A DNA stretch of 64,000 nt from the NCBI GenBank assembly GCA_973895155.1, contig OZ316891.1, positions 11,285,875 to 11,349,874 on the forward strand, read 5' to 3'. Made by a program: the position numbers and the translations under genes. Position 1 is the first letter of the stretch. Every line of letters starts with the position of its first letter. The notes under the pieces were generated by a model that made no database searches, was not told the origin of the DNA, and saw only the letters and a list, made by a program, of their open reading frames with translations. The DNA comes from Marsupella aquatica. Lineage: Eukaryota; Plantae; Marchantiophyta. This document shows, one piece after another, positions 4,401 to 31,830 of the stretch.

Positions 4401-6465
4401 GGGGAATGTTGGTTTCATTTGAAAGGGTTTTTTTCAAAGGTGAAGTGGACCCCTCTATACTCATATTTGGAATGCTTTTTGGCCATGTTTTGGGTGTTAG
4501 ATAATAGTTGACGGAAAGTCCAGCTAAGGGCAGCCCTCAATTTGACAAAGGAAGCCCCTCTTTTGCAAAGTCTTCTCTTAATCTTCCCCACAAGCAATCA
4601 TGATAGCCCCCTTGTGCATAATGGGCACCCTAAATTTTGGCGAGGAAGCATGTCGTACACAAAGGTGCCGCTCGATTTGGTGTGGAAGTCCCTCCTTAAT
4701 TTGCAAAGTGTGGAGTTTGTGAAAGGATTCTTAGTGACCATTTTTGAGTCTCTAGTTTTGTGAGTGTCCATTCTTTAGACGTTAGGTAAACAATGTTTCT
4801 GCCCGGGCGATTTGGAAATTTGCTAAAAAATTCATGAATTATTATCTTTTTAGACTATGTGGCCATTACATTCAAGTACGTAACTATACAACCTTTTAAT
4901 GGTAAAAAAAGTATCCATTTTGAAATAATCTCATAATGTTCACTGTACAGCCGCCACCATAACAATTAATACATCTAAAGAGAAAGTTGGTTTTAATGAA
5001 TCTAGTTGTGATTTATAAAATGGAGTTATGTACATGGGCACGAGCGTGTAACTTGTACCTTGTTGTTGGTGCCACTGTCCATTGCTCACTTTGTGCGCCC
5101 CACTCTTGTCAATTATTTTATTCAGGGAGACAAGTCCCTGTTTTGTCATTAAATGCATCTTGGTTTTCCCCCACACCTCACTGGAAGACTCTCCTTGTTT
5201 TTGTGTCCCACTTTTTTCAGGCCAGCTTTTTTGGGTCCCCTGGCTGCCCCTGCCCATCCCATGCTTGGGCAGCCCTTAAAACCTCGCCCTTTTTGGTAAC
5301 CCCTTTATTTCTATTTTAAATAATAGGTTCTCTGGCCCGCTCTCTGGTCATTAGTCAGATTTTTCTGACTGTATTTTTTGAAAGTTTGAAACATGGAAAT
5401 AAAACCCAAGACCAAAGAGCCAAATAAGACGAGAGTAGTCACCAATTGCAAGAAGAACTAAACCCTCCCTACAATTTTTTTTTCAGGCAGGAATTCCTCT
5501 CAGCATTGAGTGTGGTTGCATTGAGGCCTCTTTTGTAGGAACAAAATTATCTCAGATTCCAGAAAAGAACTATCTGGTTGAAGGAGAATGTATATGTGAC
5601 ATTTCCAAAGAACAAAAAATGTCAAACCAGGAAACAGGATACCAAAGGCAAGTGACTCAATAATGGGGTGAAAACATTAGCCTAACCTCTGTAAGATTAA
5701 AGAGCCAAAATAAGCCTGAGTCCAAACAACTGCAAAAATGACTAAAATAACTACAACCCTACAGACAAAACTTTCTGGCATGAATCAAAGGATGTCAAAA
5801 AGTCTGGTTTGGTTGAGAAATGGAGTTGAGAAAAGACAAAGAAAGGAATTTCATGGCAGAAACTAAACGATCACAAAAAGTGCCAGCGCGCAAAATACTT
5901 GATGGGTCCCCTCTAGGTAAAGATAATCGTGACTAGCCCCTCACTTTTCAAATGTACTTAATGGGGCCCCTTGTCCCTGCAACCCTTTCTCATGACCTGT
6001 GTGAGTCTTTTCTGCATTTTTTAATTGTAACATAATCCTACAATTATCTACATCAGTCCACACTAGAAGAAAACAGGGCCCTTTATGACCAATCACCCAA
6101 TGACAGAGATGAATAAATGACCAAAAGTTTTAATGACACAAAAAGAATGACAGGGGAATGACTGTCCACAATGACCAATAGACTGAAATGACAAAATGTT
6201 AATTTTTTCGTCATTTTGTATAATGTCTATAATGACTGATGCGACCAAAATGACCCAATTTCCCTAAATGGTCAATTTAGACACATGTCTTAAATGACAC
6301 AATTAATAACAAAAATGATAAATCAGTGTTTAGCAACATTATAGTCACTCTTGACAATGACTAAAATGACTAAAAATCTATTTGGATCATTTTGGACAAC
6401 GATGATAAATGACAAAAAATGTATTATCGTCATTTTAACCAACGGTGTTAAATGACAAAATTTAG

Positions 6466-6880
6466 GGTCAATCTGAAAATGAGAATATATCAGTGTTTAC
6501 AACAACATATTGTCATTATGGACTTCTGCCATAAATGATTAACTCTAAGGTCAATCTTGAAATTAGGACATATCAGTGTTTACAAGAACATACCGTCATT
6601 ATGGACTTCTCTCATAAATGACTAACTCTAGGGTCAATCTTGAAATTAGGACATATCAGTGTTTACAAGAACATACCGTCATTATGGACTTCTCTCATAA
6701 ATGACTAACTCCACACTCAATTTTGAAATTAGGATATATTGGTGTTTTCAACAACATACTGTCATTATGGACTTGTCACATAAATGACTAAATATAGGGT
6801 CAATCTAAAAATCAGGATATATCAATGTTTACAATAACATACAACCATTATGGACTTATTGCATAAATGACTACTTATAG
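6466..6880. repeat. Subterminal tandem array, 5 x 83 bp
   Basis: Unit GGTCAATCTTGAAATTAGGACATATCAGTGTTTACAAGAACATACCGTCATTATGGACTT... starts at 6466, 6549, 6632, 6715 and 6798. Confidence 0.9.
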
Positions 6881-7154
6881 AGTCATTAAAGAACCCAAGA
6901 GATATGAAGATTAAAATACTCAATAGTCATTCCAGACACCTATCATAATTGTAGAGTCATACACCTTTGGAGTGATTTTCAAGAAGTGTCATCATATATA
7001 GATGCGCGCATACTATCGTATCCATGGGGCAAATGAAACCTTTTTGTCTCTCCAAGAAGTAGGGCAATACCAATGGAAGGTTGTAATCCTTTGTTGTAAT
7101 TGTGTCATGTTTGTGCCGGTGTTTGGACGGGGAATATTTTAATTTGCAAATAAA

Positions 7155-8480
7155 TGCATGCATACCATCACATCCAAAGGCAAATAAAAGTTTTTTTTGG
7201 TTCTCCAAGAGGTAGTGCTGCCCCAATGGAATGGGCAGGGGAGTCATGCTTCTCAGTATGGTGTGGGTGCAGGTTTAGGGAAGAGGAATATTCCAATCTT
7301 GCAAGGAATCTAGAGCTGGCTCTCTTTGGAGGTACTAGGGCCTTTATTGGGTCATATGTGAGCAATGGCCCGTCATAAATGCCAATGACTAAAAGTAGGG
7401 TCATTAAAATTGTCATATGGAGAGTCATATCAGTCTAATGACTGGATTTGTGGTCATTTGAGGGGTCCCTTATGTAGTCATTAAGGAAAAGCACAAATGA
7501 CCATTTTGGGGCTAGGGGCTTGAGGTGGGCCCTAGAGTGCCATGGGGCCCCACATAGAGGTGAGAACCCCTCCACTAGGTGCGGGACACTATACTCATCA
7601 TTGTCCAACCACTAGTTGCGACATAAACACTTTGGACACATGTTTTTGTGTTTACTCAAGGCATGATGCACCTTTGGGGAAATCACTCCCAAGTCGTACG
7701 ACTTTGGAGTGATTTGCCAAAAGTGTCACCATGGATGCATACCATCACATCCAAAGGCAAATAAAAGTTATTTTGTGGTTCTCCAAGAGGTGGTGCTGCA
7801 CGAATGGAATGGGCAGGGGAGTCGTGCTTCCCTGTATGGTGTGGGTGCGGGTTTAGGGAAGAGGAATATTCTAACCTTGCAAGGAATCTATTGGGGGCTC
7901 TCTTTGGAGGTACTAGGGCCTTCATTGGGTCATATGTGACCAACGGACCGTCATAAATGCCAGTGACTACAAGTAGGGTCATTACAACTGTCATATGGGC
8001 AGTCATATAAGTCTAATGACTACAGTTGTGGTCATTTGTGTGGTCCCTTGTGCAGTCATTAAACAAAAGCACAAATGACAGGTTTGGGGCTAGGGGCTGA
8101 ATGTAAGAATGAGTGCCACGCGGTCCCACATAGAGCTCACCACCGTTCCACGAGGTGGGGGATACAATACTTTCTATTCCACCACTAGTTGCAGCATAAT
8201 AAATGTTCAGACATGTTTTTGCGTTTAGGGAAGGCATTATGGAGCACTACAAGAGGAGCATAATTTCATTGGGTCATTTTGGATTAAGGGTATTCATTAA
8301 TGCCAATGACTGAAGTGAGGGTCATTGGCACCGTCATTTTGCATGTCATATAATTCAAATGTTGTGTCATAAAAACCAATTTTGACTACAAATAGTGTCA
8401 TTGAAATGGTCATATTAAGTGTCATATAAGACAAATTATTGGACATTTGGTCATTTAAGTGGTCCCTTGTGCAGTCATTG
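7155..8480. repeat. Tandem duplication of ~580 bp plus a partial third copy within the CACTA 5' region
   Basis: ATGCATACCATCACATCCAAAGGCAAATAAAAG... occurs at ~7158 and ~7735 and the copies continue colinearly. Partial copy at ~8290-8480. Confidence 0.85.
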
Positions 8481-9087
8481 GGGTTGTCATGAATTAAAAA
8501 ATGACATAGTATATCACATATTATCACATCTGAATGTGTAATTCCTTGGACCCAAATTTTTTGGGGCCCCATAAGTGCTAATCAAAATAGTACATATATG
8601 GTATACCATATCATTCAATACTATAATAAACTTCACTATTTTCCTTAAATAAGAGAGTTCACACAAATTATTAACACGTTTTAATCGATGTGTGATTATT
8701 GCCAGGCCGATTTTAGAGTAGGGGTAATAGTTGATCGTGACATGAACAAAATGGTGCGTCTTTGGCAATGACAAAAAATTGAGATCTAATGACTGCAACT
8801 AGTGGTTGTTTTAGACCGAAGTCATACCGAAGTAGGGGTTCTCTTTTTAATTATCAGGACCTTATATAATGTCATTGTGGTATGATATGGGAGGACTCCT
8901 ATAAGAAATCACCAGAAATGACCTTATTTGGCCCGGGGCTGCCTATGGGTGGGAGGTGGGCTTCCCTTGAGTTAAAGTTTAGATGGGGGTGTAGAGTCAT
9001 TTAGGGTTTAGGGTATTGTGGCCTTATGGGGGTCAGGACATTTTTAGGAGTTTTAGGGTAAGTGAATTACCCTATTGTGTGTGTCGT

Positions 9088-9933
9088 TTAAGCCCATCCA
9101 ACGGTAAACATGACCGGGTTTAGGGGGCGACATTGTTTCCAGCACAAGTGTTCACCATTCGCGCGAGGGCCCTTTTTCCCGAAAACCATCGATCTGCTAC
9201 GTTGAATGTCGTGGTTTCTTGGTGTGCACATATCAGTTTCCGAGCGGAGTGCTCTCACCTTTAGGGTTGCACAAAGTTTAAGTGCTCTTGGGACTTTATC
9301 ACTGCGCTGCGTAACGTCGGGCAAGCATTGGGCGAGGCATTGTTTGAGTGAAGCCTTGGACCTGGACCCTAAACTATTGACCATTTGCATGCTTTAGAGG
9401 AGGAGCTCCGACCCGAAGCCATTCAGGCTGCCATTGTTTTTGAGTGTGTTGCGCACATTCGGCAGAGCACCTCGGTAGGACTTGGGCGCTACATGTTTCC
9501 AGGAGCTTTGATTGATTGGCATTGCAATAGCTTCTTTACATTTCCTCCAAGTTGCGGGTGAGGAGCGGAGGACGTGCTGCAAGCGGAGGACGAGCGGAGA
9601 GCGGAGGACGAGCGGAGAGCGGAGGACGAGCTCGGGCTGCCAGCGGAGGACGAGCGGAGGGCTGAGCTGCGAGCAGAGGATGAGTTGCAAGCCGAGGACG
9701 AGCGGAGAGCGAAGGACGAGCTCGGGCTGCAAGCGGAGGACGAGCGGAGGCTGAGCTGCGAGCGGAGGACGAGCTCGGGCTGAGCTGCGAGCAGAGGATG
9801 AGCTGCGAGCGGAGGACGAGTTCCCCTCCATCTCCATTCGTAGAGTGAGCTTCTTGTCTTTTTGGGACTTTAATTGGGAGTCAAGCTTCTCATTTCCCAC
9901 GAAGAGATTTGTTCTACTGCATGCTAATGCCAC
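9088..9933 (-). pseudogene. Antisense cargo ORF of unknown function with low-complexity repeats
   Basis: ORFs 9394..9933 and 9088..9390 are in the same frame, separated by one stop. Contains the GAGCGGAGGAC minisatellite. No recognisable domain. Confidence 0.3.
9560..9820. repeat. GC-rich minisatellite (GAGCGGAGGACGAGC / GGGCTGC modules)
   Basis: About a dozen near-identical copies of (G/A)AGCGGAGGAC interleaved with GAGCTCGGGCTGC and GAGCTGC. Confidence 0.9.
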
Positions 9934-12176
9934 CGCGTTTCATTCTGTGACACTGAATTTTCTCTTCTAGAGCCTGTAGAGCGTCCACATCTAGAGACAG
10001 ATTTCTTCTGTTGAACACCAATAAAAATCCCGTTCCATTCTACTCACAATAATCTAGGGCTGTTGGGAGAAATGCAGAGTGAGTTCTATTGCTGATTTGT
10101 AGTCTATTTCTGGGCACTATGCTTGGTCTGTCAATTGCCAACTGTGCTTGTCTGTTATAGTTTGTGGAATTTGATTTGAATGGTGAAAAGCACACTCTCT
10201 GGATGAAAGTGCCGGCTAAGCGTAGACTGAGCGTTTCATATACGTTTGATTGATATTCCATTTTGATTGCACAATTCATTTGTTGCGGATCCCTACGAGT
10301 GCATTTTCTATTTGTTATTCTCTGCCCCTCAGCACCAAGATCGTTTCCTCAGATCTCAATTCAGCCGTTCGTTGGTGTGAAACATGACTACTGTTGCTCC
10401 TCTCGGTTTCATCCATGCCTGAACGTAGCAATCGGCAGCCATGAAGGTGGGGCCATCACCATTTTCACAATCCATCCAACTAGTAATGTTCGCTCAACGG
10501 CAACCTTAAGTTGTGGCAATTGTGGTACTGTGGACTTTACTGACAAACACATCGGAGAATTTTTGGACACCCTAAAGTGCACTTCCTCTTCTACTTAAAA
10601 ATTCAAGCCCTAAGATAATTTCCTTATCTTTGACAAAATAAGAATGGTGATATTGATGTGCGAGCGGAGTAACTATGTGCTCTGTTGTGGGGTAAGTTCA
10701 TTCATACCAAGGGGCCAGCTAGCGCACTGCCAACAGCATACAATCCATGCATGGGGAGTGCCAAGCCAATCTAGAGCATTAATTTGAGCATTGTTTTGCT
10801 CTGTATGAGCGACCAGGCCGTCTAGCAAGTACTTTGCTTCATAACAATTGTAAAAGATTCTCAACAGACATTGGCTCTATCCATGCATGAGGAAAAAGGC
10901 AATGTAGAGCATTAATTTGAGGATTTGTTTTCCTCTGAATGAGTGAGCTGCGATTGAACAATGTAAGTACTAGTAAGTACTAGACTACTTGCTAACCCTT
11001 GCTGGAAAATCTGCGTCAAACATCTGTTCCCACAATCCAAATCTGCGTATGTTGGATCTCTGTTGCGCTCTACTTTCTTTCACAGATTTTTTTGTCTCTT
11101 CCATTTCCTTTCTTGCATCTGAAGTCCGAGGACCATACTAGTTATCAATGTGCCAAAGACTTCTCATTTCTTCACTTTTCGTCTCCCTGCCGTTGGCACT
11201 TTCAGCAACTTTTTTTTTACTGAAGAGAAGTGCAGGCATGTATGGTGAATCCTCACTGGATTCCAGCAGTGACTCTGTAGAATTCTGTCGCCAAAAAGTT
11301 TCAGAGTTTCGTGTGTGGTTTGCCAACTGCTGTGCCACCTCAGAGAATTCCTCAGTGGCTTTTGTACAAGCCTTGCTCTTCAACTATGGTAATTTACAAC
11401 TAACTGTCTGACGTTCACACATGATTTCCTTTGGTCTGCAAACTGGACAAAACTAAACTAAAATCAGCTTGGTCAATTTTAAATTCTTCGTAAGGGTCTC
11501 TGACAGCAGCCCGGTAATGCCACGACTGCACGAAGATAGAGTACGGTGCAGCTTTTGAAAAAGTGGGTGGACCAGCAACTTGTTGAGAGTAAAGCAACTT
11601 ATGGTTCTCTAACAGATGTGTGCAGCAACTTAAGATGTAGAAGGCACGCAATAAAACTTGATTTTTACAGATTTAAAAAAGGGCAGGGTGATTGAGCACT
11701 GCATAATGAACTTACTGGTCCGAATCTTGATTTGATTTCACTGCTAAAATTTGTATCTCTTGCCTGAGTCCCAGTTCGCTGGAGTTTTGTTGCTCTCTGT
11801 GCTTTGTTGTGCACATTGTTGTGTTTGCTCTGTCCATTTTAAAACTTGAGAGCCAAATGAATGCTTTGCTGAAACTCAATTGCTATTTGTTCTGTGTTGC
11901 CCTTATAGATTTTAAAAAGGCAGGGTGAGTGAGCACTGCTGTACAGGAAGCGAAGGCATACAGGTTGCAATATTTGTGATTGCTTCCAATCATAGGCCAA
12001 GGTTATTTGCACTGCTCAGTCCTAAATGCTTTGCCATCCATAAAGCATTGGTTTGTGCTGCACCCTTGTGGTTACATGTCATATTTTATGCTGCACCCTC
12101 ATTCTTGTGTGTCATGCTGCACTCTATTATTCCTTCTTGTTTCACAATCTGATGTAGGGTCTGAGTGTGCAGGACC

Positions 12177-12836
12177 ATGGCTCGCAATAAGCAGAAGGCC
12201 ATGAATCGTTGCAGAGGTGAATCCTCTCAAGCACCTCAATTGTCCTTATACTCAGACATTGAGATTAACCAGAATAGTCCACATGTATGTGCGATTTGTG
12301 ATGAGGGAGGGGATCTCATTGTTTGTGATGGGCCTTGCCACCGACATTTCCATAAGAATGTTTCCTGTCCTTTGGGTCAGCAATGGCTATGTCCAACTAT
12401 ATCCCTGGCTGATGGCCATGTTGGAGAATGGCTTTGTGTTGATTGCAAGAATGAGGAACATTCTTGCTTTAAGTGCCATGTGTCTGGAAAAATGGGTGAA
12501 GAGGTAAGAAAATGTCCAGACCCTCTCTGTGCCCGGTTTTACTGTCAGCAGTGTTTGGTTCCTGGCACAGCATCATGTGGACTCCATATTTGTCTTACTT
12601 GTGGACAGGGGCCCAATGATGGGGCTAATAGCTTTTTGGTTCAGTGCATGAGGTGTCCTAAGGCATGGCACAAGGACTGCCTGCTATTTATCCAGCAGAG
12701 GGGATTTGCCCATGATCGGACAATTTGGGATCACTCAGCGCATGGGCAGCCCAAGAAGGGGATGTTTTACTGTCCTGACCATGACATTGACCCTACACTA
12801 GGCACTCCTGCTAGGAGTCACATATCTTGGATTTGA
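12177..12836 (+). CDS. Stand-alone EDM2-like multi-PHD zinc-finger protein (219 aa) carried by the CACTA
   Basis: VCAICDEGGDLIVCDGPCHRHFH...WLCVDC..HSCFKC...CPDPLCARFY...CGLHICLTC...VQCMRCPKAWHKDCL...RTIWD...FYCPDHDIDPTLGTPARSHISW follows the Cys/His spacing and C-terminal YC..H.ID..L.TP.R.H motif of the EDM2/NSD-type PHD cassette. ORF is uninterrupted, with ATG in ACCATGG context downstream of polypyrimidine/AG acceptors. Confidence 0.85.
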   Translation: MARNKQKAMNRCRGESSQAPQLSLYSDIEINQNSPHVCAICDEGGDLIVCDGPCHRHFHKNVSCPLGQQWLCPTISLADGHVGEWLCVDCKNEEHSCFKCHVSGKMGEEVRKCPDPLCARFYCQQCLVPGTASCGLHICLTCGQGPNDGANSFLVQCMRCPKAWHKDCLLFIQQRGFAHDRTIWDHSAHGQPKKGMFYCPDHDIDPTLGTPARSHISWI

Positions 12837-13436
12837 TTGAGGCTGGATGGAACACAAACTTGAGATAGAGTTTTTTGATGGTTTCACGTGGACTTCAACA
12901 ATTTTCAGAGTGCTAAAACATGTGGACTATTTATATGCAGTTTGATGAACTCCTCATGTATACACACTCTACGACAGTGCATTGCGGATTGAGGCAATCA
13001 ATTTTGAGAAATCAACTTTACTATCTTTTCCAGGGTAGGATTCCGATTTTCATGCATGTGCTTTGAGTGTGACTCGGGTCATTGTTGATGTCTAAACTTC
13101 ACTTGTAAATTTGTCACTGGTGTCACAAACATTACTTATTCCAGACCTGTCTGCTCACATTCCTAATAGGCAAACAAATACTGGAAATGATGAAGGCATA
13201 GAGATTTACGTTCATAGTATCATTCTGATGACACTGTATGTGATGCTCTATTTGTATGCAAGAAGGAGAAGGTGCCCCACTACAATGGATTTGAGAAACT
13301 GGGCTCTGTGGGTTTGAGCAATTGGACTGTGGTTGGCATCGGTTGTACAACTGTGACGGTAGGCCCAATTTTGTATGCATGTCACACCGATTCAGTTTGA
13401 AAATCATAGTTTGAATACAATTTCAATCAAGCTAGC

Positions 13437-16400
13437 ATGGCACAATTGCCACAGAATACGTTAGGTGTGGGTAGAACTCCAAAGTTGCCGCTCTTCCATC
13501 CAGCTAGAGTACAACATCGTGATGATGCTTTGTGGGTTCGAGAACAGAAGCCTGCCACAAGAGTGGGGACCATAAGATGTACTGCCCTTGTGTGAACTGC
13601 AAAGGGAATTATAGGACTAATCGGAATACTGCTAGACTACACCTTATTTAACATGGTCGGTACCCTGCATGTCGAGTGTGGGTGGGAGAGGGACAGGACT
13701 CTTCTGATGAAGAGTGGGGTGCTGACTACATGTCACAACATGGCCCTGAGGCATTGAGGGTAGCAAACCTTCAGCAGGCATCCTGTGCACAACAGCCAAC
13801 TGTAGATGTTGAAGAACATTTATTTGTAGATGTTCCAGAGTATCCAACTGTGGATGTTCAAGAACATCCTACTATAGATGTCGAAGAACATATCAGGGCT
13901 CTACTAGAAGAAACGTTGCTGAGAACCAATGAAGAATCCCCTGAGCATGAACTAGATGATCAGGACCGTTTTGACTTGGATTTTATACTTGGGGATGATG
14001 AGAGTGAAGGAGGTGCCCATCCTGTAAACCCCCTTGAAACCTCTGAAACTCCTATGGAGACTGATCCTGCACAGTTATCTTTAGATGCAGCAATGCAACC
14101 TTTGTTCCCAGGCAGCAAAATAGATGTTGTGTCATTCATGTTGCTTCTGCTGAACATCTGTCATGGCCATGGATTCTCAAACAAAGGAGTGAATGCATTG
14201 TTGTCTTTGATGGGGGAGCATGGTATGCCTGCAGAGCATAATCTGCCCAAGAACTTATATGCTGCAAAGCAGCTATTGAGAAAGCTTGGCTTGGATTATG
14301 AGAGAATCCCTGTCTGTGAGAAAGGTTGCATGCTCTTTAGGGGTGAGAATGCCAAGTTAGAAAACTGTTCAGTGTGTCAGCAGCCCAAGATGAAGAGAGT
14401 GGGGAATTCATTACAGGCAAGGAAGGTGGTGCGGTATTTCCCTATAATTCCCAGGTTGAAGAGATTGTATGCCACTGCTGGTACATCTAAACTCATGACT
14501 TGGCATCATGAGAATAGAAGCACAGACAACATGGTTCGGCACGCAGCAGATTCAAAGGCTTGGAAGCATGTGGATACAAATATTGATCGGAAATTTGCAG
14601 CTGAACCAAGGAATGTGCGATTTGGGTTGGCACTTGATGGGGTGAATCCCTTTGGGAATAATTCCACAGCTTGGTCTACCTGGCCAATACTGTTGTTGAA
14701 TTACAATTTACCTCCTTGGCTTACCACCAAGAAGTTCTTTGTCATGCTAGCTATGCTGATTCCAGGACCTGATTCAGTAACAGAGGAACAACTGGACATA
14801 ATATTGGGCCCATTCTATGAGGAGCTGGAGCTGTTGTGGAAGAAAGGAGTGCCCTGCTTTGACAAATTGCCACGCCCAGGATTGTCTCAACACTTCAACC
14901 TTAGGGCTGTGCTATTGTGGACAATCAATGATTACCCTGCATATGGTTTAATATCTGGACAACAACACTCTGGATACAAAGGATGTGTCATCTGTGGGCC
15001 AGAATGTGTGGCACGTGGTTCTAAGCACTTGCAGAAATTAGAGTACAGTGGCCACCGTCGATGGTTAGCAGCAAGGCATCTTTTTCGTAGACCAGACGGT
15101 GCACAATACTTTGATGGTGCAATTGAGAGTCGACCTACACCGTGTAGAATATTTGAAGAAGGGAGGAACCAAGGTTGAGGATGAGAAATGCCCCATAAAG
15201 GTGCATGGAGTGAAGAGGGCTACTGGTCTGTACAAGTTACCCTATTGGAATGTAAGACTCCATACTACTACAATGAATTTCTGCAATCTCTTCATATGAC
15301 TTTGAAATATATTCTCTTCATATACTTCTTGTACCCCAGATTTTGTAATTGTTGTATTCAATGCAGTAATTTCTGAATTGTGTCCACTGCACAAACTACT
15401 GCCCAGTGATGCCAAAAGTTGTATTCAATGCCCTAATTTCTGAATTGTGTGTCCACTGCAGAAACTACTCATTAACCATTGTCTAGATCCCATGCACTGT
15501 GAGAAGAATCTTGCACACAACATTGTGCACACTATCATTGGGACCAAGGACACTCCTTCTGTGAGAGAAGACATGAAGCTCTTACAGGTGCGCCAACACC
15601 TATGGCTTGTACCCAATCCAGCTCCCAAGCGTAAGGATGACAAATTGTTGATGCCCCCAGCCCCATATTGCCTGAGCAAGAAGGAAAGAACAAGGTTCTT
15701 GGAGGTTTTATTGACCTTGAAAGGGCCCACTGGTTTTTCAAGTTCTTTGGCAAAGTGTGTTACAAAATCCAAGAAACTCTCTGGGTTGAAATCACATGAT
15801 TTCCACCAACTCATGCAACAGATTCTCCCTCTGGCAACAATGGGATTACTTGATGAAGGGGTTCGCTTGGCCATAGCTGGGGTGAGCAATATCTATCGCC
15901 AGATCTGTACGAAGGTGTGGGACCCTTCAATGTATGAGAATTTGATGATGGATGTTGCATTCACTCTCTGCATTTTGGAAATCCATTTTCCACCAAGCTT
16001 CTTTGATGTCATGACCCATTTAATGATTCACCTAGTGGAGGAATTAGACTTGTGTGGCCCAGTTACAGGCAGATGGATGTACCCAATAGAGAGGAACCTG
16101 AAGGTATTGAAGGGTTATGTACGAAACAAGGCACGTCCAGAAGCTTCTATGGCTGAAGGCTATGTATTAGATGAGTCTTTGGGATTCCTTTCTGAATACA
16201 TGATTGATGCAAAGGGAGAGGGAAAACAAACCTGGGAGTTGGAGGAGGATGCTGGCGTTGCAGGCATTGTTTTGGAAGGGGCTGCAAAGGCGATAACTTT
16301 GGATTGGTCTGAAATGATGGCCATGCATCATTATATATTGGAGAATGAAGAGACAGTGGCTCCATGGTACAGGTACATAAACCCTAAATTATGTTGCCCC

Positions 16401-17329
16401 ATTGTGTTTGTATATTCATGGTGGATCATGCACTAATGTCTTCAGTGTTGTTGTTGCCATGCAGGATATATGATGCTACCAATGAGACTGTTACCAAACG
16501 AAGAGTGGATTTCCGGAAGGAATGGATGAGGAAGCCTGCCAATCGAAGAAAACCAGTGGAATTTCCCGCTGATTGCCAAGAATTGTCACCTTTTAGGGAA
16601 TGGTTTCAAACATTAGTCAATACCCATAATTTTGAAAAAGAGTCTGAGCGGTCATTACTATCTGCATACTCCACACCACCTAGTTTGAAGGCACGACTGT
16701 ATAGGGCATGCAGAGCCTATGGGCACCATTGGAGGACTATTCCATCCTTGGGGTGTTTGAGTGATTGTGATTCTGGTGCTTTCAGCACTTTTGATTCTGG
16801 GATGGCTTCTACATTCACTGAGAAGCGAGTGGACAGGTCTGGTGCAACCATAGAAGAATCTGTACAGTATGTAGGGGCCTTGACAGATATCTTAGTACTG
16901 AATTACGGCAGCTTGAGGAAAGAGGTGATTCTTTTCAAAGGGAAATGGGCAGATCCATCATGGACTCCTAAATCCTCTGCCAGTATGAGGTATTCCGAGT
17001 CTGGTCTTTGGCAGGTGAATTTCCATAGAGAACTGGGTGTGTCCAAGAAAATGGATTACGTTTTCCCAAAGCAAGTGGAGCAGGTTTTCTTCCACCCCAA
17101 TGAGAAGGGGATAGCATGGAGAACAATCCTCCACAAAGAATCCAGGTCCACAAGGGTGTTAGGTGATTACACAGACGTTGATTTCCATGCTACAATGGAA
17201 AACAATGCCAAATTACACATCGAATTGGCTAAGGCCTGTAGGTCCAAAGAAAATCCAGGACCAAGTACTGGTCCCAAACGAGGCAGAGATGTAGAGGGAT
17301 CTGCAAGAAAGGGCAGGCCTAAGCAGTGA
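13437..17329 (+). pseudogene. TnpD: CACTA transposase TnpD (Transposase_21 + DUF4218 + DUF4216), disabled
   Basis: N-terminal MYCPCVNC zinc motif (~13577), LALDGVNPF, NYNLPPW, WTINDYPA, LDPMHCEKN, GLKSHDFH, FPPSFFDVMTHL, RWMYPIER, FPKQVEQVFF. Introns 15252-15461 and 16373-16464. Lesions: frameshift ~13550, TAA at 13649-13651, frameshift ~15145. Confidence 0.93.
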
Positions 17330-17427
17330 ATAGGTTTTAGCTAGGTGTGTGAAGTCCATAGATGGACTACATGTATGGACTATTTATGAAATCAGACTAA
17401 TGGTTTACCCATTTGTGCAGTTGGTGA

Positions 17428-20400
17428 ATGCAGCCTGTGAAAGGAAGATTGCAAGGGTTGTCACATTCTGTGAATCCTTATGAGGAGGCCCGAAATCGGA
17501 ACATAGAGCATAATGTCAGAATTATGCGTGATCTAGGACTGGGGCCAGACTGCAAGCTGATGTGTGTGTTGATACGTCTATTGCAAATTTGATTCAGTAG
17601 ATGGAGTTGTCAGGTTCATGTTCTGTTTTCATATTCCAGATTGGTCTCATACTAGTATGGATCCTGTACATAAGTACTAGTGTTACAGTGTTGTAGATTC
17701 ATTTTGCATGTATGTTTGATCTGCATTGGTGTATGTTGATGATTGCTTTGTTCCTTAGAGGCCCAACCACACATGTACAACGAGAGAGAGGAAAGCCTGC
17801 TTTGGTGAAAGGTACTTCAACTAAAACATTGCCAAAGAGGAGGAGCTCTAGACTATCAGAAGTTACCAAGGTGAACATGGCAGAGTTTGGTGATGATGGA
17901 TATGGTTCTCCTTCTGAGTATGACACTGAGGATTCTGACATTGGAGGGTCAGAACCAGAGAGTGCACAACAGGTAATGCTTGAACTTCATCATCCTAATA
18001 GGAAGGGATCCTTGTCCCTTTTTCAAATTATATGTTGATATGCTTACGTTGTCCATGATGTAGGTACAGAAACAAAATCGTGGTCCTAAGAAGACTGGGC
18101 CTGGTGGAGGTGGGCTAGTGAGATGTTGGAAAGACCCAGACACTGGACTCTTATATGAAAGTGAGTGGATTGTACTGTTCTACTTTTCAGGTGTGTTTGG
18201 AAGTTGATATTCTACTTGGAAATGAAATTAATTGAAGTGCTTTGGTGTTGTGTGTTTGTTTAGTGGTTCCATCAGCATCTGAAGGCAGATCAGGTCAATC
18301 TGATGTACTACATTCCAGAGGATCTTCAGGTAATACACAATCTGCTCGTCATGCATATGCAAGTACATTTGCTCAACTTTTCAATCATGTACATATTTTT
18401 TGATTGAATGCATGTGTGTGCATTGCAAGAGGGGCCTCTGAGATGCGCAGGGAACGAAGGCATGCTAAGAAGCAGTTTGATAATACTGCCAAACAACGAA
18501 GGGATTGCGGAGAGGTGCCCAAACACATTAAAGTGAGTATTGTACTTGTTTTGAATGTAGATTTAGACAAATCTGATCCTCTCTGTTGTTGTGTGTATAA
18601 AACCTGGACTCTACATAAATTCCAGAGTTATGATCTGACATTGTCTGTGAAATGCAGATTTATGACAATGATATTGATGATTCTGATGGCAACAAACAAT
18701 ACTGGCTGGAGGAACTTCGTGGCAACGTACTCAGAGTCTTTGATGTATCAAAGCCAAAATGGACTGATCATCCACAAGTTCATACAACCACAGTGTGGAA
18801 TAACATGGCAGCTGAGTGGGAGTATGTAGGTGGGGAATTTATTAACACCAAATTCCAGAGTCATTGTCGTGGCATATTGAAGAGAGAGCGCCATAAAATG
18901 CATGTTTATTGGAAGAAAGTTTGCAATGAGGATCCAACCAAACCTGGGCCATCTGGTGTTGATCCAAAGAAATGGGCAGCTTTGGTATCTCATTTTACCA
19001 GTCCAGCATTGATATCTTTGAGTAAACAGATGACTGATAAAAGAGCACGAGTGCAAGATACCTCTCACTTTGGAAGGGGAGGGCATGCTGCAGCAGCAAA
19101 GAGAATGGTAAATTGTCTATCATTTTCACTATCAATTCTGTCTTGTTTGTGAATCTTGATGAAAACAAACTCTGTGATTTCTCATTCATTGTGTGTTTGA
19201 ACAGAAGCAGAAGAGAGGATCAAGCCCAGGTATATCTGACCTGAAAGAAAACCATGGTAGTCAGGGTTCATTGCCAAAGGTGACAATGAGCCCATCATTG
19301 GCAAGTGCAGAAGGTCAGACTGGTAGTTTTGTGGGAGCAAAGGTGAGCCCATCATTGGCAAGTGGGGAGGGTAAAAGTGCTAGCTTACTGGGGCAAGGAA
19401 ACAGACATGGATCAGCTGTGAGTATTATCATACCAATTTGATTTGTACATCATTCTCCATTTGACAGAGCTAGTGTTGTGTCGTTTGTAAGTTTGACAGT
19501 GAGACTGTTGTGTTGGTTTGTGGTTCATTTACAGACCCCACATTCAAAAGAAGAGATCACTGCCATTGGGGCTGTGAAATTGGATGTCGCTGAGTTGAAA
19601 GGCACTGTGAGGGAGTTGACAAACATGATGACTACGTGGATGGCACATCACCCCAGTAATGCACAAGTTCCAACAGTTGTGCCTAGTCACAGTAAGTTGA
19701 CTACAACTACCAAACAAGGTAGTAGAAAGCGATCTCTTACTTTTTCAGGCGATAATGAAGGTAAAATTCTCTATCATGTATACACTGTCCATTCAATGTA
19801 ATTATTGTGATGTGTATATGTCATTGCATGTTTATAATGTTCTTGCATGTTTTTAGTGTGATTATATGTTGCTGGTGTATACATGTTTGTTTATGCATTT
19901 CTTTTGTGTGTGTTTTATGACAGCATCTTTAGGGGAGCCTCCTGTGTTGCAGGGAAGACCAACTGACATAGCTAACAGTACTCTAAAGCAAACTGAATTG
20001 GAAGTGAACCTTTTGCCATCTAAGTTGCCCAAAGAAGCCATTTCAGATGCCTTTCAGTTGCCAGAGGATAAGTCGACTCAGTTGACACCAGATGTAACCC
20101 CAGAATCATCTGAGTTGCCAAAAGAAACTCCCATTCCAAGTGAACAGGATGACACTCCATCAACTAGAAAGGGAAAGAAGAAAAGGAAGAAAGGATCCTC
20201 AGCAAATGCATCACCTGCACAGAAGAAACCAATGCAGTCTCCTAACCCCGTTGCAAAGGTAAATGTGTGTTTGATTTGAGTGTTCTTCTATCTTTCAATT
20301 TCTGTTTATTGCATTTTTAACAAAATGTGTTGTTCACAGTTTGCAAGAGGAGATTTGGTGAAGATGAAGAGCGTTGTGGACAATTCCATGATAGTGGCAG

Positions 20401-20600
20401 AAGGTGAGGTGACAGGGCTGCCAGGAGAAGATAAGTTTCATTGTGCAGATTTTGAAAGCCCTTTCTTGCGAGTGCGTGTGATTGAAGTGTTTGTAGATGT
20501 GGCATTGCCATTTGCCAATTCAGGGGAGAACCAGTCTAAATTATCTGATGTGAAAGGGATGAATGCCCTATGGAACGCTAGATTGCTTAAGAAGCAATAG
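17428..20600 (+). CDS. TnpA: CACTA TnpA-like multi-exon gene (Transposase_24 core, C-terminal Tnp1/En/Spm-like domain)
   Basis: Exon ~18658-19107 has GVDPKKWAALVSHFTS...SKQMTDKRARVQDTSHFGRGG. Last exon ~20341-20600 has IVAEGEV...FH...RVRVIEVFVDVALPF...LSDVKGMNALW. Many GT-AG introns. First exon MQPVK...YEEARNRNIEHNVRIMRDLGL. Exon structure only partly resolved and intactness not verified. Confidence 0.75.
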
Positions 20601-23030
20601 AAATAGCACTCTATCAAGATACAATAGACATGATAGAATGACAACTCTGTTTTTCTATAAACATGCAGAGTGATTGGTATGTCAGGTTGTAACAATTGAC
20701 AATCTAATATTATTGATGTCAATGTAATTTTGTTTCATAAATTTGCATTGAGTTCAATATTTACCGTGAGACTTATGAAGGTATCTTGTATGAATATCAA
20801 TTGGATTTGTGATATATATCGAATGTTTCTTTAAGTTTTCATTCAGCAAATCTATTGAATGGCTTTGTAATGTATGATTTTTGATTGACATCAAGTTTTA
20901 TCTATCATGATCACTTAAATTTGAATTTCTCCAAATCATTGAATACTTCGTCTGAATGACTGGCTTGAATGACTAAATGACTGGCTAGAATGATTGATGT
21001 AATGGTCATTATTCACAACTATCTTTGTGACCAATATGACTCAACTCTGGTCATTAAAGACATAGACTAAATGATTCAAAGAATGACATATACAATGACC
21101 TTTCTCATGGTCATTATAAACAAGTCCACTATGACTCACTTTATGTCATTCAAGACATGTCATTAATGACTAATGTGTATCTTTACGTGTCTTCTCCCAA
21201 TTGAACCACGTGTCTCAATATGACTTGTTTATATTGTAGTCATTTTGGACACATCCAAAATGACCCAAATATATTGCCAAATGGTGAATCCTCTTTGAAC
21301 CACGTGTCACTATTTGATTTGTTATATAATGTACGTCATTTTGGACAAGTCCAAAATGACCAATGTTATTTGTTTTTTATTGCCACGTGTTGTTGTGTGA
21401 TTGGGTACGGGGACCATCGACGGTCAACGGCAATTGACCGTCGATGGTGATTTGTGTCGTCATTTTGGACCGTTCAACATTTATGACCATATCAAAAAAA
21501 CGGTCATTTAGGATAGTATGAAATGACCACATGTTTTTAGCGTCATTTGTCCAAAAGGACCATGACCAAAATGTCCGTTGTGACGCGTCTGGAAAGACGA
21601 GAACAATTGCGTCATTGTTTTGTTAAAAAGACCTGATTAATAGTCATTGTTTCGGTCATAAAATACATTGTTTTCTACTAGTGCCACCAAATGTACTCTC
21701 TAGAAGCAATTTTAAGTGTACACTTGCTTAAAATAAATAGATAACATATGTACAAAGTATTTAGCCCTTGTCACTACCATATTCATTTTTTTCATGTTTT
21801 GAAATACTTGTGCAAGGTAAGTACTACTTTAAGGTACCTAATATGTACTCTCTTTAGTTATTCCATCTCAAAGTTTTTGGCAGTACTCACACCTGAAAGT
21901 ATTTCTCCAAAGCATAGTCTTACCTGAACTTTAGTAAGGCGAGTCAATGGTTTTGGGTACTATTTTTAAAAATTTGTTTTCTGCAAATAAATCACGTGTG
22001 ATTTAAACAATTCTTTGATGCTATTTTGCCAAAAAAAAGGAGTCCAACGTTAGTATTTCCTAAACACACCAAGTTCTTTTTGTGAAAGTTTCTTTTGTGT
22101 CACTTTGAGTAAACATAGAGACGTGAATTGTGATATGATTTTGATAGCTAATTTTGTGGTTGTTTCACCAACATTGAGCTCAAATTCTAGGGTCATATAA
22201 CTGCTTTTACATTTGTTACTATGTGCATCCTAATGCTCATTTTTATGAATTCAATTGATGCCTTGTGAATTCAATTAGTGCATTGTGTACTAAGCTAAAC
22301 AATAAAAATTACCATTTAAGTAACATTGTGTAAATTGCCTGAAATGCTCTAGCTAGGTGCTCACATCTGAAAAAAACTTTCACAAAAATAACACCAACGA
22401 AATGCTCAAGTCTAACATGAATATTTCCACAAAGGTTTTTTGGAAAAATAGCATCAACGAATTGTTTAAGGGCCACTTGATTTAACTGCAAAAAACAAAT
22501 TTTAATAAATAGCACCCAAATAGCACCGGCGAGGCACCCGGATTTCACCCAAACCATTGGTTCACCTTACTAAAGTTCACGTCAAACTATTCTTTGGAGA
22601 AATTGGGGAAAGACATAGAAAGGGGATAAGAGAAAGAGTAGATGCTTGCCATAAACACTCCTTGGTGTCATGGCAACTTTGTTCACCACCCCTACTCAAC
22701 AAACAGTCAGCAGCAGGAAGGGTGGGGAGTTAAGGGCTGCCCAGGCACGGGATGGGCAGGGGCAGTGAGGGAACCCAAAAAGGTTGCCCTGAAACTGACT
22801 TGTGACACAAAAATGAGGAGAGTCTTCAGGTGGGGTGTTGGGCAGGAAGGGTGTGATTTTAAGGGCTGCCCAGGCATGGGATGGGCCGGGGCAATGAGGG
22901 AACCCAAAAAGGCTGGCCTGAAACTGAATTGTGACACAAAAATGAGGAGGGTCTTCTGGTGGGGTGTGGGGGAGAACCGAGGTGCATTTAATGACAAAAC
23001 AGGGACTAGTTTCCGTGAATATTATTTTCA

Positions 23031-25214
23031 AGTTAGGGAGATGCATCCCTGTTTTGTTATTAAATGCACCTCGGTTACCCCCCACACCCCACCGGAAGCT
23101 TCTCTTCATTTCTGTGTCACACTTCAGTTTCAGACCAGCCTTTTGGGGCCCCTCCTTGCCCCTGCCCATCCCATGTCTGGGCAGCCCTTAAAGCCCCATG
23201 CTTTTGGTAGCCCCTTTATTTCTAGTTTTTTTTAATGGGTTCTCTGGCCTGCTCTCTGGTAGTTTGTCAGATTTCCTATGTATTTTGAAAGTTTGAAACA
23301 TGGGAATAAAACCCAAGACCAAAGAGCCAAATAAGGCAAAGTAGCCACCAATGGCAAGAGGAACTAAAACCCGCTCATCCAAAACATACATTTCAGGCAG
23401 GACTTCAAGGATGCCAAAAGAGTCTGGTTGCATTGAGGTCTCTTTTGTGGGTTGCAATAAACTAAAATTGTCTCAGATTTCAACCCAGAAAAGAATTATC
23501 TGGTTGAAAGAGAATGTAAATGTCACATTTCCAAAGAATAAAAAATGTCAAACCAGCAAACAGGATACCAAAGGCAAGAGACTCAATAAAGGGGTGAAAC
23601 ATTAGCCTAACCTCTGCAAGATGAAAGAGCCAAAATAAGCCTGAGTCCAAAAACACTGCAAAAATGACTAAAATAACTACAGATCCTACAGACAAAAATT
23701 TCTGGCATCAAAGGATGTCAAAAAAGCCTGGTTTGGTTGAGAAATGGAGTTGGGAAAAGACAAAAAAGTAATTTCACGGCAGAAACTAAAGGATCACAAA
23801 AAGCGCCTTGTTGCAAAAAAAATTGGGGAAAGAAATAGAAAGGGGATAAGGGAAAGAGGAAACGATCGCATTGAGTAGAAAATAGATGCTTGCATGAACA
23901 CTCCTTGGCGTGATTGGAGGCAAGTAGTTCACCACCTCTACTCAACAAAAAGTCAGCAGCATGACAGCAAAATACTTGATGGCCCAGATATTCCCCATGA
24001 GCCCCTCACTTTTCAAATATACTTAATGGGGCCCCTTGTCCCGGCAACCCTTTCTCAAGACCTGTGTCATTATTTTTTCCATTTTTTTATTATAACATAA
24101 CCATACAGTTATCTACTTCAGTCGACCAGATGGACTGTCTAGAAGCAATTTTCAGTGTACTTGAAAATAAATATGTAAAGTATGTGCTAAGTATTTAGCC
24201 TTGTCACTCTCATATTCATTTTTTTCATGTTTTGAAATACTTATGCAAGGGAAGTAGTACTTAAGTTAAGTAATGTTTACTCTCTTTAGTTGTTCCCTCT
24301 CAATATTTTGGAATTACTCATACCTGAAAGTATTTCTCCAAAGCATAGTCTTACCTGAAGTTTCATAAGAAGGACCAATGGTTTTGGGTGCTATCCAGGT
24401 GGTGTTTTTTAAAAGTTGTTTTCTTTCAAATAAATCACGCATTACTTAAAGAATTCTTTGATACTATTTGCCAATTTTCTTTTCGGAAATATTCATGTTA
24501 GACGTGAGCATTTCCTAGCTTGGTGTTATTTTAGCAATCAAAATCATATCTCAATTCACCTCTCTACGTTTACTCAAAGGGACACTAAAAAAATTCACTT
24601 TGCGTATCACGTCCTGTGACCACTAGTCCAATCTGTAAAAACTATGAAGACATTGACAAGTTCAGCATGCAGCTTCACTCCCAAATCCTGCCTATTTGCA
24701 TTGGCTTATGCAAAACCATCAGAGTCAACCAAGACTCTAGTCTACAGGGTACTATCAAAGAGACACAGTCATACCCTCATACCTGGAGAACATGAACAAT
24801 AATGTATATGGTTCGAGTGACAAGGGCTAAATAATTCATACATACTTTATAAGAGGATATATTTATTTTCAAACAAGAGTAGTTTACATTGAAATTGCTT
24901 CTACACACTACATCGTTATGTAACAATTAGAAAATGGAAAAAATAATGACACAGGTCCTGAGAAATGGAAAGTAAAAAGTTAGGGGCTCGTCAAGAATAT
25001 GTTTATCTAGAGGGCCCCATCAAGTGTTTTGCTGGCAACAGGGAGGGCGGGTTTAAGGGCTGCCCAGACATGGGATGGGGAGGGGCAAGGAGGGGACCCA
25101 AAAAGGCTGGCCTGAAAATGAAGTGTGACACAAAAATGAAGAGAAACTTCCCGTGGGGTGTGGAGGATAACCGACGTGCATTTAATGACAAAACAGGGAT
25201 GCATCTCCCTGAAT
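23031..25214. mobile_element. Non-autonomous long-TIR DNA element, copy B (~2.2 kb, uninterrupted)
   Basis: Left AGGGAGATGCATCCCTGTTTTGTTATTAAATGCA (23035) is inverted to right TGCATTTAATGACAAAACAGGGATGCATCTCCCTGAAT (ends 25214). Internal sequence is homologous to 5120-6060 plus 21684-22150. No TSD seen. Confidence 0.8.
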
Positions 25215-28200
25215 CTAAATAGCAGCAACTTAACGACAACTTTGAGTGGGGTGTGTGTAAAAATGGTTTGAACTCCATCTGGCAGGATCTGAGCCATGGA
25301 TGATGCCACAACTGGAGGCTGAATTCCAAGTGACTGAGGTGTTGTGTACTAGATGTTCTGGCCGCCTATTAATGCACATTATTTGTCATTAATTTGCCGG
25401 TTTCTTCATGCACATTATCCGTGGCAATACCTATAGTAGTATGGTTGAAAGAATTTGAGGAATCTTGTGGAACTGCACAATTAAATTTGGTGTCAGCATA
25501 GTACTTGACGATATGATTATGTGATACTTTTACCCTAGAGTATTATAGATTGAATGAAAAATGAATGAATTGTATAGCAAAGGAAAAACGCCACTCTATG
25601 CTCAAGAATTTTTTAGATTTAATGCCTCCCAGCCTATTTTTAATAACTGCAATGAAAACTTAGTTACACAATAAATGTAAATAAATATTTTTTGATAATT
25701 AAAAATTAAGGATAAAATTAAATTAACAATTTGATGCCTTGTAAATTTATGATATATCATAGGATGATATAACAAGGCTTGCTTAGACCAAAATTAATCT
25801 GTTGTTGAAAAATTGTAAGTTTCTGAAAATGCCAATTGATAGAATGTAAATACTTAGAACCCATTGGGATCGAGACAAAAAAAGGGGCTATTAATGGCCA
25901 GCCTCTTTCATATGCAATGTGCGATTCAAAATTAACACTAACACAAAAAAAATTGCAAAGGAGTCTTGCATGCTTCTGACATCCTTAGAGGCCTAGGGTT
26001 GTCATTTGGCCTATAGAGAGCTAAGAGACATGCCTCTACACTCCTCATTTCATACAACATATTAATGCATAATTTATGCTAAAGGTTTGAACTAAAGTGT
26101 GAAGTGTCTTAGATCTACTGACAACAAGAGTTCCAAAATAGGCCTAAATATTGACCCCAATTTCCAAAGTTTTCCTTCATCTATGACTAGCTCAAGTCAG
26201 AGTTATCTTTTCCTTTTGTTCAGTTAATTTCTTGGTCTTTCAACAAGGTTACACATGATATATGGATGCAACATATTCCAATTCACTAATTCACTACTTC
26301 TCATCTTCCCGGGCCGTCTACCTAAAGCCAACCAGGAGATGTCTTGAAACACACCTCAATGGCCTATATGTTGCAAAATTAAAGTACTTAGTCCATGTGT
26401 GTGCTACCTTGGTATTTATTGTTATTATATGTTATCAAAAATAAATATCAACAAATATGTGCTAAAACTTGGTGGTCATTCCCGTGGAAGAAGAAAGTAT
26501 GATGAAATTAATGGTTTAACAAGTTTTGAGTGGCTTAAAGATGGAACTCACATCTATAAATAAAATCAGCAATCAACAAGCCATGCAGCATGTTCCATGG
26601 AAAAAATATGACTCTCAAAGTCCATCTAGCAAGTTGCCATCAATTCCAGTAACACTAAGAAGGGTGATAAGCAATTGCTGATCTTTTTTGGCCATGGGAC
26701 ATTAACAGTCCACACAACTTAAAGAACTTTTCTAATCCCTAGCTCTTGAGGTTGTCTGCCCACAAATAGTGCCTCCTTGCCTAGTTAGCTTACAATAGTG
26801 CTTATAGATTGCAATTTCCAGCCATGCACTCTTTAGTTGCTGAAAATAGGGATTGAGAGTCAAATGAAAATAATACAGTCATGTGGATGTGTGTTTAATG
26901 TGATGCCATGACCTCTACCTTCATGTTGCCAATGAAGACCTCTCAAATGAATTAGAGAGGCCCTTAATTTGCCACATCTTGTAAGACCTATAGCAAAATG
27001 AAACAAAATTGCCACAACATGATAAGGGTCAAAGTGGAAGCTCAACCTTGCTATAGTGCTTCATGTCTACTGATGAAGGATGATACATGCAGGTAACTAC
27101 ATTTTCTTAGTTTAGGTGTGCAGTTTTTTCCTAAACTGCTAGCAACAAGTTTCTTTTGGTTCCCTGGAAACTTTCCAGAAGGACAAGAACTTTCCCCCCC
27201 CCCCCCCTCTTAATATTTTCATTAACTTTTCAAGAACCCCCTTCAAATCATTTATTTTTCAATCTTGCCGCTCATTTGTTAGTATGTGTTGATTTATCCT
27301 TATATTCAAGTTATACTAAATTGATTATCATGCATTATACATACCCTATGCTGTATATTCTCAAGAGACCCATTTGTGGCAAAGAGGACCAGTTTTGTAA
27401 ACTTACAATTGACTGTTGAGTGCTTGAAGATCAGTAGTCACTCGTAGCTAAACTTCATCTCATATATTTGGGTTAGTCCAATCCATTTCCATTTATCTAC
27501 ATGCTACATTTTCAAATTGAAATGGGACTACCACCGAGCCATCATGTGCAAATACATTAGTTATTATTGAAGGTTTGGGCCAGGCTACTAAATAAAATAT
27601 TTTGGAGTTAAGGTAAAACCAGTGGAAGCCTGGATAGAGCTTAAGAACCTTGGGTCTCTAATGGATGAAGCTCTGCTGACACTAACGAGATTCAACAGAA
27701 ATACGCAAGGAACTACAGAATGGGTCTATGGATGACATAAAGAGATGCAGAAAGTTTACTTGGGATGAATTTGATGGAGCTTTACATGATCGAGTATGAG
27801 GCAAAAGCAGGCTGGAGGTTTAAGAGGCTACAAAGGCATTATTTTGATATAGATGGTTCTATGGGTATTCCTAAAGGTCTTCTAATGTAATGTGTCCAGG
27901 TCATGTTCGTGTAATTGGAACCTGTTGGACAAGAATTCTTAAAAACATTGAACCCAGTTGGAGTGGTGGTGGGGAAGACTATTCTTGCATTCATTGCATA
28001 GGATACCCTCCATTGCAAAAAAATACATCCAACATCCAACTTACAAAATGTGCAAAATATTCATATACCAAACTCAACATATGTGTAAGTAACAGTGCGG
28101 AAGTTCTCCACATACTCAACGCATAGTCTGACAAACCATTCCAACAACCCATAGCAAGTATTTATTGAGGGCAAAACTCAGTAGTTTCTCATGACATGAG

Positions 28201-31400: not shown

Positions 31401-31830
31401 TGTCAAAGGAGGAGAATAGAAGTGGGTCAAACCTCATCTCATGCCCCATGGGAAGAAACTTTGTATGCCCAATATAAACAATCTTTCTAATCCATGAACA
31501 ATATGTGGCCATGTCCTCTAAGCTTGGGCCACAAGTAGAGCAAGCTTTGTACCCCTGAGTTTGCAATCCAGAGACAAAACCAAACCCTGCTTACATAGAA
31601 GAAATCAAACCATGCAAACTTTATGTTAGGGTTGTCACATGAGAAACAACAATAGGAACTACACATTATTGAAGGGTTGCAAATGGCATGGAAGTCATCT
31701 TACCAGGATAGTCATGCATTGTCCAACAAATGATCCCTCTCAATTAAAAGACATGTGGAAAACCTCCTGTAATTTTCCTGCCATCATATGCCCACACTCC
31801 ATTCCATAATTTTTGAAGTTCTCCAACCTC
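28426..31830 (-). mobile_element. Truncated CACTA element (CACTACAACA terminus)
   Basis: CACTACAACA at 28426 followed by TTGCGAA/TTCGCAA subterminal motifs to ~28915, a purine-rich tract at 28950-29150, and a TnpD remnant. Confidence 0.85.
29387..31830 (-). pseudogene. TnpD: 5'-truncated, frameshifted CACTA TnpD transposase
   Basis: ELQKLWNGV...WTMHDYPG (~31830-31705), intron, then GYKACSTCG, LPYW..RHLLDPMHIEGN, LKTHDYH, LPPSFFDCQVHLLVHL, RWMYWLER, EPFAFPSHLEQCFY. Split over several frames with stops. Confidence 0.9.

Follow-up and report, generated by a model that had tools for sequence, protein, structure and literature searches.

A stand-alone EDM2-derived PHD gene with a candidate histone H3-like tail in a CACTA transposon of Marsupella aquatica

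Histone mimicry is known from viruses and host proteins, and the known plant transposon counter-silencers, VANC and TnpA, recognise DNA sequence. Several described systems resemble the locus analysed here, a 64,000-nt stretch of Marsupella aquatica DNA (the window) in which a 15.6-kb CACTA element (6061-21683) carries a stand-alone PHD gene. EDM2 and EDM2-like proteins (XP_002976689.2; Calypogeia CAM6087769.1) share with the encoded protein a three-finger cassette and a YC..H.I....L.TP.R.H extension. Unlike EDM2, the window protein consists of the cassette only, bears an H3-like tail with Lys4 and is encoded inside a transposon. VANC of VANDAL (MuDR) elements is also a plant DNA-transposon accessory gene that probably stems from a host chromatin regulator (PMC13547354), and the accessory gene on the window element likewise descends from a host chromatin factor. 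VANC is sequence-specific and MAIN-related, however, whereas the CACTA-borne PHD cassette of the window shows no indication of DNA specificity. In RAGL transposons, RAG2L is a separate PHD gene beside a CACTA/Transib-group transposase, as here (PMC10629977, PMC12730594). Yet most of RAG2L is a kelch propeller that binds RAG1L, its gene is convergently oriented, and the origin of its PHD is unrelated to the window cassette, which fills the window protein in place of a kelch-propeller-PHD arrangement; the passages on RAG2L in PMC10629977 also report no H3-like tail, unlike that of the window protein. H3TMs such as VRK1 and BCL11B (PMC8166343) are chromatin-type proteins with an iM-Z-R-X-K start, and BAZ2B (PMC5663869) has a mimic on the same chain as its PHD; the window protein resembles both. 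H3TMs are known from human host proteins, whereas the candidate mimic of the window belongs to a plant transposon gene and shows extra likeness at H3 positions 7-9. Epigenetic accessory genes on CACTA-type elements also include the TET/JBP dioxygenases found in fungal EnSpm and further DNA transposons (PMC12730594); these, however, are enzymes acting on DNA while the window protein has no catalytic domain. A full-text literature search, conducted mostly at the level of titles and abstract starts and with Repbase and most subscription papers outside its range, returned no CACTA-borne PHD or EDM2 gene, and the main text of a structural survey of 962 Spm proteins, supplements aside, does not contain the term PHD (10.64898/2026.08.24.746577). 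The window gene would be a variant of the chromatin accessory genes that transposons carry, with a predicted function.

The features of the element are collected in Table 1. Its junctions read CCA/CACTAGAAGAAAAC at 6061 and TTTTCTACTAGTG/CCA at 21683. The flanking repeat has an uninterrupted paralog at ~24110-24130 that represents the empty site, and the 3-bp CCA duplication is therefore real. CACTA...TAGTG terminal inverted repeats, the 3-bp duplication, subterminal repeats and TnpD domains, the latter in a gene that is broken in this copy, identify a CACTA element. Both ends are dense in the AATGAC/GTCATT motif, which reaches ~9.5 and 7 per kb in the 5' subterminal region compared with 0.4 and 0.2 downstream of the element; an 83-bp tandem array at 6449-6873 lies within the same region. 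The CpG-rich stretch farther in may represent a promoter and first non-coding exon, and its role is presumably similar to that of the Spm downstream control region. TnpD shares its strand with the PHD ORF and begins 600 bp downstream of the PHD stop codon; it matches Transposase_21 and DUF4218, and weakly Transpos_assoc and DUF4216. Its three lesions comprise two changes of frame, near 13570 and 15150, and a stop codon near 13649. The original prediction had placed the PHD ORF inside an element bounded by target-site duplications, co-oriented with and upstream of a TnpD with three lesions, all of which was borne out. Its further suggestion of selection, drawn from the contrast between the intact ORF and a TnpD with lesions, carries no weight, since the chance of zero lesions in 660 nt at the TnpD lesion rate is 0.58.

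Table 1. Features of the CACTA element and its PHD gene (window positions)
Feature	Position	Strand	Basis
Left target-site duplication, CCA	6058..6060		Empty-site paralog
5' terminal inverted repeat, CACTA end	6061..6074	+	Terminal sequence comparison
5' subterminal repeats	6075..9000		AATGAC/GTCATT density
CpG-rich region with 18-bp repeats (9563-9820)	9261..10060	+	CpG o/e 0.87-0.89
Two similar 16-17-nt stretches, AG/GT-flanked; candidate 5'-UTR mini-exons	11671..11924	+	Inferred
Stand-alone EDM2-type PHD gene, 219 aa, intron-free	12177..12836	+	ORF, Pfam, tree
Candidate H3-like N-terminal tail, residues 2-10; iM-A-R-x-K, Ala at 7	12180..12206	+	Pattern count, PMC8166343 definition
PHD1-PHD2-PHD3(variant) zinc-finger cassette and EDM2-type C-terminal extension	12288..12833	+	Pfam, alignment
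TnpD transposase gene, three lesions, two inferred introns	13436..17329	+	Pfam
Spliced second gene in TnpA position, multi-exon (inferred), no Pfam match	17760..20600	+	Open frames
3' subterminal repeats	20600..21669		Motif density
3' terminal inverted repeat, TAGTG end	21670..21683	+	Terminal sequence comparison
Right target-site duplication, CCA	21684..21686		Empty-site paralog

The gene downstream of TnpD is a putative TnpA by its position. TnpA-like proteins are apparently restricted to flowering plants according to a 2026 preprint (10.64898/2026.08.24.746577), and this gene may be an exception if the host is a non-seed plant. The element sits in another repeat family (5100-6060 and 21684-25220), which has direct and inverted copies nearby that are 80-89% identical. 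CpG is strongly depleted in the coding body of the element (o/e ~0.2) and CHG is not (~1.1), while the subterminal regions are CHG-depleted (0.55-0.62). A second TnpD relic at 29390-31821 on the minus strand, with Transposase_21, DUF4218 and DUF4216, is 28-36% identical to the first, and no PHD remnant was found near it in the window. The remaining part of the window contains an intron-free xyloglucan fucosyltransferase gene of 464 aa (48404-49798, minus strand), which marks the DNA as that of a land plant, and an 887-codon open frame that runs to the window end (61338-63998, plus strand) and has no Pfam or PDB match.

The PHD ORF is open over all 219 codons with neither an intron nor an internal stop, in line with the uninterrupted reading frame and the C-terminal end described at the outset. 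Its start lies in a GACC-ATG-G context just past a candidate 3' splice site. Of the Pfam models, two scored above the cut-off, PHD_NSD (E 1.9e-8) and PHDvar_NSD (E 1.6e-7), and PHD and PHD-1st_NSD below it. Structure comparison with Foldseek gave only a weak match to the JADE1 PZP module (E 7.9e-4, TM 0.19), while VIA-align aligned the NSD2 PHDvC5HCH tandem (Z 5.4, rmsd 2.5, 75 aligned residues) and the Ehd3 tandem PHD (Z 3.6). The cassette fills the protein; the rest of EDM2, and any catalytic domain, are absent. Without an enzyme domain, the protein would be limited to the role of a reader, a decoy or an adaptor that bridges other factors. A spliced fusion of PHD and TnpD was considered and rejected: splicing from the strong donor (12503) into an acceptor at 13034 would run into a stop after 10 codons, and none of 35 longer matches is a transposase-fused relative, which is weak evidence in the same direction.

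Homology and tree analyses placed the cassette with EDM2, in accordance with the EDM2-type assignment of the original prediction. All 35 longer relatives are EDM2 or unnamed EDM2-like plant proteins (26-34% identity), and the C-terminal extension is common to EDM2 and the window protein. The best long relatives, in a comparison that did not include the host's own EDM2, are 31-42% identical (top local matches 42%). The best long matches are liverwort proteins, Selaginella EDM2 (XP_002976689.2) is 32% identical and the first match in the ESM Atlas is a streptophyte PHD_NSD cluster (0.91). An NSD/ASHR3 origin was rejected, as NSD2/3 align to residues 27-167 only and have no C-terminal extension. 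Besides the window protein we found 25 clusters of short relatives. Full-length members of this set are 33-84% identical to the window protein, measure ~205-245 aa and end 4-12 residues past the last conserved His. They form a clade that makes up one side of a branch in a tree of 149 rows (23 rows, support 1.0; 26 partial proteins dropped) and again in a tree of 56 rows (16 rows, support 100). In a mixture-model tree of 35 rows, rooted on four divergent PHD proteins without the C-terminal extension, the clade (10 rows, support 100/100) is nested among the plant EDM2-like proteins (group support 86/96), with a stem length of 1.76 changes per column. Nine clusters are in no tree (P0020, P0022, P0052, P0053, P0075, P0091, P0107, P0126 and P0132) and were assigned to the clade via profile score and signature residues. 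Relatives were also sought in viral and prokaryotic genome contigs, with none among 23 and 13 candidates, respectively. A metagenome scan gave two matches among 41 candidates, a true clade member (L001) and a distant non-member (L002). The L001 locus comprises 1495 bp, 75 bp of it downstream of the gene, with no transposase within that span, which is too short to show one.

A further feature of the clade, which the original prediction had not mentioned, is a conserved N-terminal tail of the form [AST]-R-x-K-x-x-[AS]-[RK]-[RK], in register with histone H3. H3 itself has A-R-T-K at positions 1-4 and A-R-K-S at 7-10 (PMC8166343). Of 26 clade N-termini, 16 contain the core pattern [AST]-R-x-K-x-x-[AS] (shuffle mean 0.26), which is absent near the start of all 172 other proteins. 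In a non-redundant set it is present in 16/24, where 0.28 would be expected after shuffling 12 local residues (maximum 3 in 5000 shuffles), and a 9-position score is passed by 19/24 (shuffle mean 1.1, maximum 5 in 2000 shuffles). These counts are to be read with the pattern having been defined post hoc from the same sequences, whose members are homologous and not independent. Among the 19 high-scoring tails, K4 is found in 19, R2 in 18, A/S7 in 17, and R/K8 and R/K9 in 13 each, while position 3 is Pro in eight and Thr in three. The strict H3TM form iM-Z-R-X-K, reported for 48 of 20,996 human proteins (PMC8166343), is present in 7/24 members (8/24 counting internal Met). The window protein is one of them, and at its predicted start it conforms to the published H3TM N-terminal definition. 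Strict forms occur in both of the earliest clade branches of the best tree. Outside the clade the strict form is limited to 3/172 proteins (P0047, P0101 and P0112), short EDM2 derivatives of a seed-plant clade, possibly as a result of convergence. Protein starts in the clade are machine predictions; the motif lies 2-20 residues inside the predicted start in most members and is missing from 5/24. M-A-R starts, mostly followed by Thr or Val and with no Lys4, also occur in full-length EDM2-like proteins (P0011-P0015, P0030, P0035, P0062 and P0088) from liverworts, Selaginella and deeper branches, while seed-plant EDM2s in the sample have no such start; P0024 has an internal R-P-K-M-K-A stretch. 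Because of these M-A-R starts and the P0024 stretch, the likeness of the tail to H3 may be partly inherited, or the tail may be a nuclear-targeting signal. Basic protein ends often mediate nuclear import. AlphaFold models with and without Met1 left the tail disordered and undocked (pLDDT 35 and 28), and PDB searches gave no match at E<=10 to the N-terminal ends (23-24 residues) of the window protein and P0002, short queries with little power.

If the tail is an H3 surrogate, PHD1 would be its predicted partner within the protein. PHD1 retains a G-G-D-L-I-x-C-D strand and its nearest solved relatives include AIRE, CHD4, PHF21A, TRIM24 and ATRX (E 0.0014-0.36). In AIRE-type fingers an acid at position -2 serves for unmethylated K4. 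The window clade has His at this position (21/22 members), not an acid. D51, the Asp after the third Cys of PHD1, is at least 90% conserved and was aligned by motif to BAZ2B D1950, which binds H3 Arg2 and whose loss lowers H3 binding 100-fold (PMC5663869).

We favour the reading that the PHD gene is a counter-silencing reader or decoy of the CACTA element with its tail acting as a surrogate H3 end, to which we assign a probability of about 0.4. An EDM2-derived cassette would have been kept for a long time as a CACTA accessory gene, and the other clade members would be transposon-borne as well. The gene would be spliced onto the element leader and expressed, and the initiator Met would be removed from its product. 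The cassette would bind histone H3 tails, with PHD1 taking A-R-x-K ends because the Asp that binds H3 Arg2 in BAZ2B-type fingers is retained. The tail might then either fill the PHD1 groove until it is displaced by chromatin or act as a lure for the H3 writers and readers of the host. By offering a surrogate H3 end, the protein would blunt host silencing of the element. Counter-silencing is favoured because H3K9 methylation stays on active Spm, as TnpA-activated elements retain it in their body (10.64898/2026.08.24.746577), and because there is a precedent in VANC, whose probable origin is a captured host chromatin protein (PMC13547354). How a reader that lacks DNA specificity could act preferentially on its own element is not evident, unless such specificity comes from a partner, e.g. 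TnpA. In a more specific and rather doubtful version, the captured EDM2 reader has become a histone-mimic effector, in which the PHD cassette would dock on the heterochromatin of the element while a fake H3 tail with K4 and K9 contexts diverts H3 writers and readers.

The absence of DNA specificity would not matter if the protein were instead a chromatin-sensing transposase partner similar to RAG2/RAG2L, one that would attach to TnpD or TnpA and use an H3 mark to direct or permit insertion, with an autoinhibitory tail. RAGL transposons, whose transposase is of the same broad clade, carry a separate PHD gene next to it, with the RAG2 PHD setting chromatin binding and cleavage (PMC10629977), and EnSpm and Transib/RAG1 have motifs in common (PMC12730594). 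A histone-mimicking linker in BAZ2B damps its own PHD (PMC5663869), and the window copy is inserted in another repeat. This last point concerns a single insertion site, however, and the window protein lacks a kelch or any other transposase-binding domain. We consider such a partnership unlikely.

Does the gene belong to the transposon at all? The transposon setting is seen for the window copy alone, and accessory genes are able to switch transposon superfamilies (PMC12730594). The clade could be a host family of short, rapidly evolving EDM2 derivatives in which the window copy is cargo, constraint arises from a host function and the tail serves as an NLS. Deep divergence inside the clade suits such a family, as does the existence of other short EDM2 cassettes that stand alone; these belong to a seed-plant clade and comprise P0047, P0101 and P0112 and also P0147, P0114, P0098, P0122 and P0025. 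Constraint is evident in either case: 30 columns, mostly Cys/His zinc ligands, are invariant among 16 clade members, and a comparison of the window ORF with L001, the only other clade copy with DNA, gave pN 0.38 and a saturated pS of 0.82 over 213 codons, with 6/22 four-fold sites identical. Against a host family stands the CpG content, which is as depleted as that of the transposase genes. At codon junctions, the PHD ORF has 0 CpG compared with 11.2 expected and TnpD has 4 compared with 43 (3 vs 24.5 and 1 vs 18.5 in its two segments), whereas the fucosyltransferase gene and the 887-codon ORF outside the element have 17 vs 30.5 and 49 vs 65.2. This likeness to TnpD and difference from outside ORFs indicate that the PHD gene has likely been a long-term resident of the element. 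Many copies in the clade are broken, which also speaks against a host family. At least eight clusters are broken copies: out-of-profile tails of at least 8 residues follow the point where the cassette breaks off in 7 of 14 incomplete members tested, and the eighth, P0053, covers the first half of the L001 gene, which is frameshifted. One cluster mixes one broken and two intact near-copies. Further, the gene is intron-free in both copies with DNA, and no named gene from any named plant is among the 18 clusters (out of 25) whose source is known, the longest contig being 13.4 kb. Decay and source pattern are indirect indications that fit a repeat-masked transposon gene. A host family is consequently an improbable explanation, and a dedicated transposon gene, whatever its function, is the probable one.

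Another way in which the gene could serve the element is as an EDM2 substitute in RNA processing that reads H3K9me2, recruits AIPP1/ASI1 and keeps the leader-TnpD-TnpA transcript full length. This would suit the EDM2 ancestry of the cassette and the persistence of H3K9me on activated Spm (10.64898/2026.08.24.746577), and EDM2, recovered in a pull-down with H3K9me peptides (PMC6208443), suppresses proximal polyadenylation in H3K9me2-marked transposon sequence (PMC7529245; 10.1101/2022.09.21.507229). The clade has departed from EDM2 in the cassette itself, however. The 8 positions before PHD1 contain on average 0.0 acidic residues in 22 clade members compared with 2.8 in 117 long proteins, 90 of which have Asp at -3. 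The PHD2 His ligand, present in 123/134 long proteins, is Cys in 19/20 clade members, and the ~21-aa helical insert of EDM2 PHD2 is deleted. Since these residues and the insert were lost, neither H3K9me2 reading nor AIPP1/ASI1 recruitment can be assumed, and an RNA-processing role is quite unlikely. Also missing are the N-terminal RFD-like and C-terminal methyltransferase-like domains that belong to EDM2 (PMC7529245), while host-type EDM2 proteins carry a DNMT1-RFD. Judged by its sequence, the window cassette is EDM2-type and EDM2-derived, but it is not an EDM2 member. The original view that the reader module alone was captured holds insofar as the rest of EDM2 is absent, while the loss of the acidic residues, the PHD2 His and the insert shows that it was not simply excised.

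CACTA elements commonly capture genes (PMC13317346), but a recent neutral Pack-CACTA passenger from the host EDM2 is exceedingly improbable and largely refuted at the sequence level, as the ORF has relatives in 25 clusters and is neither near-identical to its best long relatives (31-42%, the host's own EDM2 not being among the compared sequences) nor unconstrained (pN far below the saturated pS), and shares clade-specific changes; the single-copy, near-identical, neutral case that had been named at the outset as refuting a role in the element was thus not encountered.

If the histone-mimic version of the counter-silencing reading is true, histone mimicry would be deployed by a plant transposon against silencing. 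A conserved gene that combines a reader with an H3 look-alike would represent a module for histone-level counter-defence or for insertion targeting. The window cassette would further provide a compact natural variant of the EDM2 cassette, the mark specificity of EDM2 being poorly resolved. As the 219-aa intron-free protein is easily expressed, peptide-binding and plant tests would be direct.
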